From: a virus
Taxonomy: Duplodnaviria > Heunggongvirae > Uroviricota > Caudoviricetes
DNA: 29,840 bases
Strand: one strand, 5' to 3'
Virus record (IMG/VR): IMGVR_UViG_2513237361_000005
The notes under the pieces are model-generated. The model ran no database searches and was not told where the DNA came from. It was given only the letters and a program-made list of their open reading frames with translations. The translations under genes and the position numbers were made by a program. This document shows positions 1-29,840 of this stretch, in pieces (position 1 is the first letter of the stretch; every line of letters starts with the position of its first letter).

Positions 1-1011
1 TTATAACGTCACTCCGCCTTTTAGAGGATTCAGCGCGACGGCATTTTGCAGGTAGTCAGGCGCAAGGTGCGCATAGGCCATCGTCTGCTGAATGCTCGCA
101 TGTCCCAGAATCTGTTGCAGTGCAATTATATTGCCCCCATTCATCATGAAATGGCTTGCGAATGTATGCCGCAGGATGTGGGTTGCCTGATTGGGTGGTA
201 TATCAGGTTTCACTCTGCGTAAAATCCCGCAAAACTTCTCATAATCAACTTTGAATAATTTGGCGCTGGCCTCCTCTTTAACTTTTTTCTCCAGTTCCTC
301 AGAAATCGGCACGGTTCGCTTTTTACCGTTTTTGGTTTTCAGGAAGGTAACCCTGCAATTTGTAATCTGTGCTGGTTTTAGCGTGGCAACTTCCGTCCAT
401 CTTCCTCCGGTGCTCAGACATAAAAGCGCGACAAGTAAGTCATCGCCAGCCAAAACATTTAACAGTTTTTCGATTTCTGCTTTTTCCAGGAACGTCATTT
501 CAGGGTTGGCCTCCGCCAGTGGCGGCAGTCCGTGAATTGGGTGTTGCCCCGAAAATTCATCCAATTGAATTAATTTTGTGAACATGCCGGATAATCGGTA
601 CATGTCACGGTTTATCGTTGCGGCACTGATACCATCACGTAGTCGCATGGAACGATAATCCATCAAAGCCCTTTTGCTCATCCGACTCACTGGTATATCA
701 CCTATGCCGCTGATGGTTTTGAGCAGATGATTAAACTCTTTTGTTCCATGCTCGTGGTTTTGCCCGTGATATTTCCACCAGATGTCCAGCAACTCACTCA
801 AAGTTCGGCGATCTGTTCGCTGACCTGCCCATTCTTTCTGGCTGGCGTAGGCGATTGTGTATCGCTCAAATGCTACAGCCTCAGCTTTTCTTTCAAATTT
901 CCTGCGGATGCGTTTTCCGTCGCGACCGCGAGGTCTAATGTCCACTTCATAGCGTCCATCATCGAGCTTCTTAATTGACATAAGAAAGCCCTCTGACGCT
1001 GTATTCACCAT
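1..1011 (-). CDS. int: tyrosine integrase (P2 Int-like site-specific recombinase)
   Basis: 336-aa ORF at the prophage edge; C-terminal region HILRHTFASHF...LGHASIQQTMAYAH carries the conserved H-x-x-R and catalytic Tyr of tyrosine recombinases; sits downstream of the repressor gene on the same strand as in P2. Confidence 0.9.
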   Translation of the reverse strand: MVNTASEGFLMSIKKLDDGRYEVDIRPRGRDGKRIRRKFERKAEAVAFERYTIAYASQKEWAGQRTDRRTLSELLDIWWKYHGQNHEHGTKEFNHLLKTISGIGDIPVSRMSKRALMDYRSMRLRDGISAATINRDMYRLSGMFTKLIQLDEFSGQHPIHGLPPLAEANPEMTFLEKAEIEKLLNVLAGDDLLVALLCLSTGGRWTEVATLKPAQITNCRVTFLKTKNGKKRTVPISEELEKKVKEEASAKLFKVDYEKFCGILRRVKPDIPPNQATHILRHTFASHFMMNGGNIIALQQILGHASIQQTMAYAHLAPDYLQNAVALNPLKGGVTL

Positions 1012-1050: not shown

Positions 1051-1344
1051 TTAACCAGTCTGTTTCTCGGAGTGGTCTGATTCTGTTGGTTTTTGCCCAA
1101 TGTGTGCGAGAGCCGGTGCGATCTGACCAGCTTGTGGTGACGTATCACCAGTCATTAACCAGAGCGTATATTTTTTAAATAAAGGTGTATTTGTGACTCG
1201 CATAACGATGCTGAGACCTGGGTCTTTATGCCCACTTTCGTAATTTTTGACTGTTCCTAGAGCTATCCCGCTAATTTCGCTGAATTTCGCCTGTGTTAAG
1301 CCTTCTGCTTTCCTAATCGCTTTCAGTTTTTCGAATGTCTGCAT
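1051..1344 (-). CDS. C: immunity repressor, P2 C-like (HTH DNA-binding protein)
   Basis: 97-aa ORF divergent from the early operon; N-terminal helix-turn-helix-like segment (LTQAKFSEISGIALGTVKNYESG); C-terminal part (KYTLW.MT....GQIAPALAH.GQ) resembles P2 C as I recall it, with a diverged N-terminal half. Confidence 0.7.
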   Translation of the reverse strand: MQTFEKLKAIRKAEGLTQAKFSEISGIALGTVKNYESGHKDPGLSIVMRVTNTPLFKKYTLWLMTGDTSPQAGQIAPALAHIGQKPTESDHSEKQTG

Positions 1345-1373
1345 TTGACAGTAACCTATTGGTGACTTATATT
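1345..1373 (+). promoter_or_regulatory. candidate early promoter (Pe-like): -35 TTGACA (1345-1350), 17-bp spacer, -10 TATATT (1368-1373)
   Basis: Consensus-like sigma70 hexamers read directly from the sequence, immediately upstream of the early operon and abutting the C start codon on the opposite strand. Confidence 0.5.
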
Positions 1374-1400
1374 CCCGTCAAAAGGTTGTGTATTGGTGAC
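1357..1400. promoter_or_regulatory. direct repeats TATTGGTGAC (1357-1366 and 1391-1400) flanking the -10 element: candidate repressor operators
   Basis: Two identical 10-bp direct repeats 34 bp apart, one each side of the -10 hexamer. This mirrors the P2 arrangement where C binds direct repeats flanking -10 of Pe. Confidence 0.45.
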
Positions 1401-1416
1401 CTTTTGAGTGTGTCAG

Positions 1417-1457
1417 CCAGTCCCTAGAAAGGACAGGGGCGACCTAGAAGGGACTGG
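1417..1457. promoter_or_regulatory. palindrome CCAGTCCCT...AGGGACTGG enclosing direct repeats CCTAGAA(A/G)GGAC: candidate second operator (Cox-type) or Pc region
   Basis: Inverted repeat arms at 1417-1425 and 1449-1457; 12-bp direct repeats at 1423-1434 and 1443-1454; lies between the Pe-like promoter and the first early gene. Confidence 0.3.
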
Positions 1458-1496
1458 ATCTAATAAGGGTAACACGAAAGCAAAAAGGGCTAATCA

Positions 1497-1769
1497 ATGG
1501 AAATCAATGACTATGTGATTCAGTACCCGCTTGATGCGGTACATACGGTTAAATTTGCAGAGTTACTTGGTAAGCCAGAAACGGCTGTAGTCAAGATGGT
1601 AAAAGAGAATAAATTGCCAGTTATTGAGCTTCGTGATCCAAGTAAGCCGAACGCTCGTGTCGGTGAGAAGTGGGTTTTCATTCCAGAGTTTAATCGCGCT
1701 GTACGAGAGGCGTTTTATAACCGACCGGTTGAACAGCGTGATGCATGGCTTTTGTGGATGGGGTTGTGA
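1497..1769 (+). CDS. first early-operon protein, Cox-like (excisionase / early regulator) by position
   Basis: 90-aa ORF, first gene transcribed divergently from the repressor, same size class as P2 Cox (about 91 aa). Assignment is by synteny and size, not sequence recognition. Confidence 0.5.
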   Translation: MEINDYVIQYPLDAVHTVKFAELLGKPETAVVKMVKENKLPVIELRDPSKPNARVGEKWVFIPEFNRAVREAFYNRPVEQRDAWLLWMGL

Positions 1770-29621: not shown

Positions 29622-29840
29622 ATGTTTCATTGTCCTTTATGCCAGCATGCTGCACATGCGCGTACAAGTCGCTATATCACTGACACGACAAAAGAGCGTT
29701 ATCACCAGTGCCAGAACGTGAATTGCAGCGCCACGTTCATCACTTATGAGTCGGTACAGCGATACATCGTGAAGCCGGGAGAAGTCCACGCCGTAAGGCC
29801 GCACCCGTTGCCGTCAGGGCAGCAAATTATGTGGATGTGA
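29622..29840 (+). CDS. ogr: late-gene transcriptional activator Ogr (Cys4 zinc finger)
   Basis: Starting at MFHCPLCQHAAHARTS gives 72 aa with CxxC-x22-CxxxxC (CPLC...CQNVNC), the P2 Ogr length and zinc-finger pattern; the listed ORF start at 29559 is an upstream in-frame extension. Confidence 0.85.
   Translation: MFHCPLCQHAAHARTSRYITDTTKERYHQCQNVNCSATFITYESVQRYIVKPGEVHAVRPHPLPSGQQIMWM

Follow-up and report, generated by a model that had tools for sequence, protein, structure and literature searches.

Near the left end of the 29,840-nt stretch of viral DNA analysed here (the window), the genes int and C lie on the minus strand and face a 152-bp spacer (1345-1496), beyond which cox opens an early operon that continues with orf78/B/A (Table 1). 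The Pfam domains HTH_3, Phage_Cox, integrase (Int_N and Phage_integrase) and GPA fall on the expected reading frames, and the gene order int-C-Pe/Pc-cox is that of phage WPhi (Peduovirus Wphi, AJ245959 / NC_005056).

Table 1. Features of the switch region and adjoining genes, in window coordinates.
Feature	Position	Strand	Basis or remark
int, tyrosine integrase, last gene of the lysogenic (Pc) operon	1..1011	-	336-aa reading frame; Pfam Int_N and Phage_integrase; homologous to WPhi int
C immunity repressor, helix-turn-helix, 97 aa	1051..1344	-	97/97 to WPhi C; Pfam HTH_3
C start codon (CAT on the plus strand)	1342-1344	-	sequence reading
Early promoter Pe	1345..1373	+	11/12 consensus match; identical to annotated WPhi promoter
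Pe -35, TTGACA	1345-1350	+	followed by 17-nt spacer
Pe -10, TATATT	1368-1373	+	after 17-nt spacer
Pe transcription start	~1380	+	derived from published 82-nt overlap and 60-nt distance from O2 to Pc start
O1, C operator half-site TATTGGTGAC	1357..1366	+	repeat finder; sequence named O1 in PMC1904263
O2, C operator half-site TATTGGTGAC	1391..1400	+	34 bp from O1; +12 to +21 of Pe
Palindrome 1: TCAAAAGGT, 12 nt, ACCTTTTGA	1378-1386/1399-1407	.	9 bp, 100% complementary; brackets O2; begins at Pe +1
Palindrome 2: CCAGTCCCT, 23 nt, AGGGACTGG	1417-1425/1449-1457	.	9 bp, 100% complementary; overlaps both Cox boxes; +5 to +45 of Pc transcript
Cox box 1 (putative), CCTAGAAAGGAC	1423..1434	+	only imperfect 12-nt direct repeat of the spacer; the two boxes lie at +8 to +19 and +28 to +39 of Pc
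Cox box 2 (putative), CCTAGAAGGGAC	1443..1454	+	partner of Cox box 1; 15-nt copy in attP of WPhi and GMS190
Repressor promoter Pc, start 1461	1461..1497	-	maps from promoter feature of GenBank AJ245959; identical sequence
Pc -35 (putative), TTGATT	complement of 1492-1497	-	overlaps cox ATG
Pc -10 (putative), TGTTAC	complement of 1469-1474	-	after 17-nt spacer
cox, Pc repressor and excision directionality factor, first early-operon gene	1497..1769	+	88/90 to WPhi Cox; Pfam Phage_Cox

Identity and occurrence of the switch

The repressor is identical to WPhi C (CAB54523) at all 97 residues, and Cox matches its WPhi counterpart at 88 of 90, the two substitutions, V3I and I12L, both being conservative. 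The spacer differs from that of WPhi by a single mismatch, a C for T at 1414 that lies outside all named elements, in the stretch from O2 to palindrome 2; the two promoters, the two half-sites and the two Cox boxes show no difference. Over the 741 bp from C through cox the identity is 98.8% to WPhi (AJ245959, NC_005056) and 99.9% to Yersinia phage GMS190, the closest record overall. Every sequence feature of WPhi (class III) that was tested is found here, and the region 1345-1496 very probably serves a P2-like prophage of WPhi type (immunity class III) as its bistable switch between lysis and lysogeny. Of 5,426 complete E. coli genomes, 260 carry this switch (at least 95% identity), each time chromosomal and in single copy.

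The sequence-only reading had proposed a heteroimmune P2-like switch, and each sequence element that it described was recovered in place and exceeds chance expectation. The switch is indeed P2-like and heteroimmune to P2, but its immunity type is not new, since C and the spacer are those of WPhi class III. A new type, heteroimmune to all characterised P2-like phages, is extremely improbable and was rejected on sequence identity: the half-sites and boxes are wholly unlike those of P2 (GTTTAGAT at 22-bp spacing; cox-box TTAAA(G/C)NC(A/C)), yet the C protein and all of O1, O2, Pe, Pc and the two Cox boxes are shared with WPhi. That reading had also suggested a comparison with W-phi, in which all named switch elements proved identical, as well as EMSA and reporter fusions, both of which were published for WPhi between 1999 and 2009. 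The WPhi switch has thus been characterised experimentally before; the early promoter, operators and Cox repeats described here are already known, and the operators themselves bring nothing new. For annotation, the window would be a WPhi-immunity P2-like prophage with an intact switch, which should be homoimmune with WPhi and whose Cox, like that of WPhi, should not activate the satellite phage P4.

Elsewhere in the genome the window is about 96% identical to WPhi at 87% coverage. It is bounded by the int stop codon (position 1) and the ogr stop codon, and its last 141 nt (29700-29840) are 100% identical to the WPhi ogr end. The 273-bp attP segment (L001:142-414) that joins the int and ogr ends in the WPhi genome is absent from the window, which therefore looks like the body, or interior, of a prophage. 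Positions 4900-29840 are ~96% identical to GMS190, P37 and WPhi, yet only 87-92% covered, so that some segments are not common to those phages.

The early promoter and the repressor operators

A near-consensus early promoter had been proposed to begin at the C start codon, and it is present as described. The hexamers TTGACA and TATATT, 17 nt apart, match the consensus at 11 of 12 positions, are identical to the annotated Pe of WPhi and form the only sigma-70-like site returned by a consensus scan of positions 1000-1800. The 10-bp direct repeats said to flank the -10 were recovered as well: TATTGGTGAC occurs twice, 34 bp apart start to start, and has no other exact copy in the window. An exact 10-nt direct repeat appeared in 8 of 2000 dinucleotide shuffles of the 152-nt spacer. 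Their suggested role as repressor operators agrees with published work, the two copies being the O1 and O2 of WPhi, which have been tested by CAT assay, EMSA and SPR (PMC1904263, PMC1904268).

WPhi C recognises two 10-bp direct half-sites that flank the Pe -10 with 34 bp between their centres (PMC1904263, PMC1904268). Both half-sites are required in vivo, and a change of O1 to CGCCAACAGT abolished repression in vivo, although C still bound the remaining half-site in vitro (PMC1904263). The synthetic Pe/operator oligonucleotide of plasmid pEE938, used to drive CAT expression in that work (PMC1904263), corresponds to window positions 1345-1401. Native flanking sequence cuts Pe-driven CAT expression almost 100-fold, an effect that the authors left unexplained and unstudied (PMC1904263); the downstream leader, with its palindromes and Pc, is a candidate cause of this drop.

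A copy of the C half-site matching at 9 of 10 positions, TATTTGTGAC, lies at 1188-1197 inside the C gene, 169 bp to the left of O1. With three one-mismatch matches to the half-site in the window against an expectation of about 1.5, TATTTGTGAC may be a product of chance. Among natural variants of the WPhi class (IMG/VR loci L008, L021, L024 and L018), the half-sites change at positions 1-2 only (TGTTGGTGAC, AATTGGTGAC and CATTGGTGAC), and the core TTGGTGAC is invariant.

The repressor promoter and the convergent transcripts

The repressor promoter, which the earlier reading had left unplaced, could be mapped from the GenBank record of WPhi, whose two promoter features fall on 1343-1379 (plus strand) and 1461-1497 (minus strand) of the window. 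The two convergent transcripts of WPhi share an 82-nt overlap, and 60 nt separate O2 from the start of Pc (PMC1904263). Counted from the end of O2 at 1400, these published distances place initiation from Pc at 1461 and from Pe at 1380, which agrees with the GenBank features, and the coordinates fit exactly: the interval 1380-1461 spans 82 nt and 1401-1460 spans 60 nt. Within the 37-nt Pc feature, TTGATT and TGTTAC may be read as the -35 and -10 hexamers; TGTTAC is a poor -10, which would fit a weak promoter. No intrinsic terminator was found in 1000-1800, which rules out the palindromes as terminators.

The sequence AATCAATG occurs twice, at 1492-1499 and 1502-1509, 10 bp apart across the cox start codon. 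The two copies give two minus-strand TTGATT hexamers, the first of which is the putative Pc -35; the WPhi counterpart of the second copy is AGTCAATG.

The probable Cox boxes

Between the operators and Pc, the sequence-only reading had described a palindrome enclosing 12-bp direct repeats, CCTAGAA(A/G)GGAC. Both elements exist, but the 12-mers overlap the arms of the palindrome rather than lying strictly inside it. The two copies are 20 bp apart and can be lengthened to 15 nt, over which they are 87% identical (CCTAGAAAGGACAGG at 1423-1437 and CCTAGAAGGGACTGG at 1443-1457). Further copies of the 12-mer were absent from the window, even when two mismatches were allowed.

According to a secondary source, the Pe-Pc region of WPhi contains a direct repeat of 12 nt that is recognised by Cox (PMC5009727). 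The protein represses Pc, promotes excision and bends DNA; long stretches are shielded from DNase I in its presence, and it is not an activator of P4 (PMC5009727). Because the spacer contains no other imperfect direct repeat of 12 nt, we identify CCTAGAA(A/G)GGAC with the published Cox site, which agrees with the proposal that Cox boxes lie downstream of the operators. By this elimination, and from a copy in attP, the 12-nt repeat described for WPhi would be CCTAGAA(A/G)GGAC. The attP copy, CCTATAAGGGACTGG, is 15 nt long, with none expected by chance, and is located in the arm adjoining int, ~60 bp past the stop codon of int, both in WPhi (L001:344-358) and in GMS190 (L002:892-906). Apart from one change, its sequence is that of Cox box 2 extended by the right arm of palindrome 2. 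Two copies of TAAGAAAAC, 16 bp apart, stand just before it (attP arms L001:321-358 of WPhi and L002:869-906 of GMS190), and the attP of phage P37 carries the related AAGGGTTTGGAGCGGTTT at the same place. Since attP is the other known target of Cox, the presence of CCTATAAGGGACTGG there lends independent support to the identification of the boxes.

It is very unlikely that the 12-mers and the palindrome are instead bound by IHF, H-NS, Int or C, or are chance repeats. H-NS does bind Pe and Pc fragments of a related Yersinia P2-like phage (PMC10321612), and a perfect 9-bp inverted repeat in the spacer, found in 26 of 500 shuffles, is marginal in significance when taken alone. The published description of the WPhi Cox site as a 12-nt direct repeat in the Pe-Pc region (PMC5009727) is, however, matched by a single repeat of the spacer, and the box recurs in attP. 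The boxes also follow the protein: relatives with a 94-97% identical Cox keep boxes of the WPhi type, whereas those at 78-91% carry others, A(A/G)CGGTTT, 11 bp apart. In four loci, Cox box 2 reads CCTAGAAGGGGC, by which a U-A pair of palindrome 2 becomes U-G.

A model of the switch

For the identical WPhi sequence, the promoter positions, the start sites, the C half-sites and the binding of Cox to a 12-nt repeat have been shown experimentally. The model outlined here carries function over from WPhi to a switch that differs from it by the C for T at 1414 and by V3I and I12L in Cox; the exact Cox contacts and the Pc hexamers assigned in the window are putative. Pe would be a strong, near-consensus promoter reading rightward into cox and the replication genes, and Pc a weak one, reading leftward on the minus strand from 1461 into C and int. 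In the lysogen, dimers of the 97-aa C protein would occupy the direct half-sites, O1 in the Pe spacer and O2 at +12 to +21, bend the DNA and block Pe. During lytic growth, Cox would bind the two 12-nt boxes, at +8 to +19 and +28 to +39 of the Pc transcript, bend the DNA and oligomerise cooperatively over neighbouring DNA, so that Pc is repressed; an active Pe would also interfere with Pc. The 20-bp spacing of the boxes may leave room for a Cox protomer of low specificity, by analogy with site X1.5 of lambda Xis.

Comparison with known switches

P2 (class I) resembles the window in its convergent Pe and Pc, in a small helix-turn-helix C protein that binds as a dimer to two direct half-sites flanking the Pe -10, in a Cox that represses Pc and is also the excisionase, and in a hairpin-forming inverted repeat beside Pc. 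It differs in its half-sites, which are 8 bp long (GTTTAGAT) and 22 bp apart, in the overlap of its transcripts (~35 nt versus 82 in WPhi), and in the six or more 9-bp cox-boxes, TTAAA(G/C)NC(A/C), to which P2 Cox binds. P2 C and Cox are 43% and 37% identical to their WPhi counterparts. A P2-type (class I) switch was rejected, as the half-sites differ and P2 cox-boxes are absent from the spacer (1345-1496). The C and Cox of P2 Hy dis belong to the same protein families as those of the window, and its C also has two direct half-sites; these are, in contrast, 8 bp long, 26 bp apart and placed around the -35 rather than the -10.

The pR-pL switch of coliphage 186 likewise has face-to-face promoters, between which Apl, a protein of the excisionase type, binds direct repeats, bends the DNA and spreads cooperatively. 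Unlike the 97-aa C protein, the 186 CI repressor has 196 aa in two domains, forms 14-mers and uses inverted repeats together with distal sites, and 186 has an establishment promoter activated by CII. The Apl sites are one helical turn apart, compared with the 20-bp spacing of the boxes here. A 186-type switch was also discarded: the window has a 97-aa repressor with a single helix-turn-helix domain, a Phage_Cox gene after the spacer and no cII.

For the box spacing itself, the nearest parallel may be the X1-X1.5-X2 array of lambda Xis, in which some two helical turns separate a pair of specific direct repeats and a less specific protomer can fit in between. Binding of lambda Xis is cooperative, head-to-tail and DNA-bending (PMC7498355). 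Lambda Xis differs in acting only at attR and in not being a promoter repressor.

Heteroimmune relatives

When IMG/VR was searched with a Cox alignment, 79 loci were found. Genome contigs (GTDB) gave only five, of which one has a different repressor type and four were usable, and together these loci comprise ~15 distinct spacer types. The C proteins of the relatives are all 97 aa long and 55-75% identical to WPhi C. Their switches have a common scaffold, which runs CAT-TTGACA, 17 nt, (GAC)TATATT, a stem, a loop of ~12 nt, the return stem, ~10 nt, and CCAGnC...GnCTGG-ATC. The sequences at the O1 and O2 positions vary in step with the recognition region of C across at least 15 relatives, and this co-variation supports the operator assignment by comparison.

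Four of the switches (L033, L034, L037 and L087) are mosaic, with Cox (94-97% identical) and boxes of the WPhi type but a C protein that is 70-74% identical and different half-sites, which implies recombination between O2 and palindrome 2. The orientation of the putative C half-sites is mixed. They are direct in WPhi and in L040 (CTATTT(A/G)GGAAC twice), inverted in several classes (L003:614-661 of P37, L034, L036, L039, L078 and L054; for example GACTTAATGAC/GTCATTAATC and TTGACGAC/GTCGTCAA), and self-palindromic in one class, where CCTATATAGG occurs twice, 34 bp apart. Such a mixture across related immunity classes is a side observation of possible interest for work on P2-like switches.

Palindromes of the leader regions

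Palindrome 1, which was absent from the sequence-only reading and was found with a repeat finder, and palindrome 2 both persist in ~15 heteroimmune relatives while their sequences change. Palindrome 1, for instance, takes the forms TCAAAAGGT/ACCTTTTGA, CCCGAAAAGGT/ACCTTTTCGGG, CCGAAAGGT/ACCTTTCGG, TTGTTGGT/ACCAACAA and TGGTTTTA/TAAAACCA. In arm-anchored alignments, which favour the structure, 89% of the cells of palindrome 1 are paired among 15 relatives, six pairs showing compensatory change, and 80% are paired in the 6-bp outer stem of palindrome 2 among 17 relatives, with covariation at two pairs (G-C, A-U, U-A, G-U). For each palindrome the covariation score was reached by none of 500 shuffles.

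This retention with compensatory change is consistent with a function in RNA, and it is conceivable, though we hold it the less probable case, that the palindromes at 1378-1407 and 1417-1457 act mainly in RNA, as stem-loops right at the 5' end of the Pe transcript and of the Pc transcript, respectively. There they might stabilise the messages or help the leaders, complementary over 82 nt, to pair with each other; their overlap with the Cox and C sites would then be incidental. Folds of single sequences recover both hairpins in 12 of 14 spacer types; RNAalifold on an unguided MAFFT alignment of 14 spacers, in contrast, returned a meaningless 5-pair helix, the hairpins being out of register. As RNA, palindrome 1 has a folding energy of -9.9 kcal/mol on the plus strand and -7.8 kcal/mol on the minus strand (z about -3.2), and palindrome 2 one of -20.1 kcal/mol on the minus strand (z -3.4). 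The Pc leader (1461 to 1342), in which hairpin 2 starts at +5, is unusually stable at -35.5 kcal/mol (z -3.1), whereas the full Pe leader, which carries hairpin 1 from +1, is not (z -1.4).

In the core of hairpin 1 all seven departures from Watson-Crick pairing are of the transition type, that is, a wobble on one strand or the other, which favours an RNA stem; the counts by strand, 6 versus 1 for palindrome 1 and 3 versus 2 for palindrome 2, are nevertheless too few to single out a strand. P2 itself has an 8-bp hairpin beside the Pc -10, which favours a role in RNA, whereas a search of the whole window against Rfam 15 at the gathering score matched no family. The attP sequences speak for a role in DNA: the right arm of palindrome 2 recurs there together with Cox box 2 but without its inverted partner, with a similar motif in the attP of P37, and the arm is thus at least partly a determinant of Cox binding at the DNA level. 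Judged from these comparisons, the palindromes may be RNA leader hairpins, inverted determinants for Cox or C, or both.

Our tentative and rather doubtful proposal is that a covarying palindrome scaffold, common to at least ~12 heteroimmune WPhi-like switches from Escherichia, Yersinia, Citrobacter, Kosakonia and Buttiauxella, forms 5'-terminal stem-loops on mutually antisense leaders. If so, an RNA-level layer, either message stability or sense-antisense pairing, would join the two DNA-binding repressors and the transcriptional interference that alone make up present descriptions of the switch, and the stem-loops could account for the ~100-fold lower Pe-driven CAT expression with native flanks that was left unexplained (PMC1904263). 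Conservation of the palindromes with compensatory change across immunity classes has possibly not been described before.

The WPhi-type switch is also found in interrupted form. In phage fiAA91-ss (L005, KF322032; 2062-3562) it is split within cox by an IS21 element (istA/istB); C and the spacer are kept, and an intact cox is gone.
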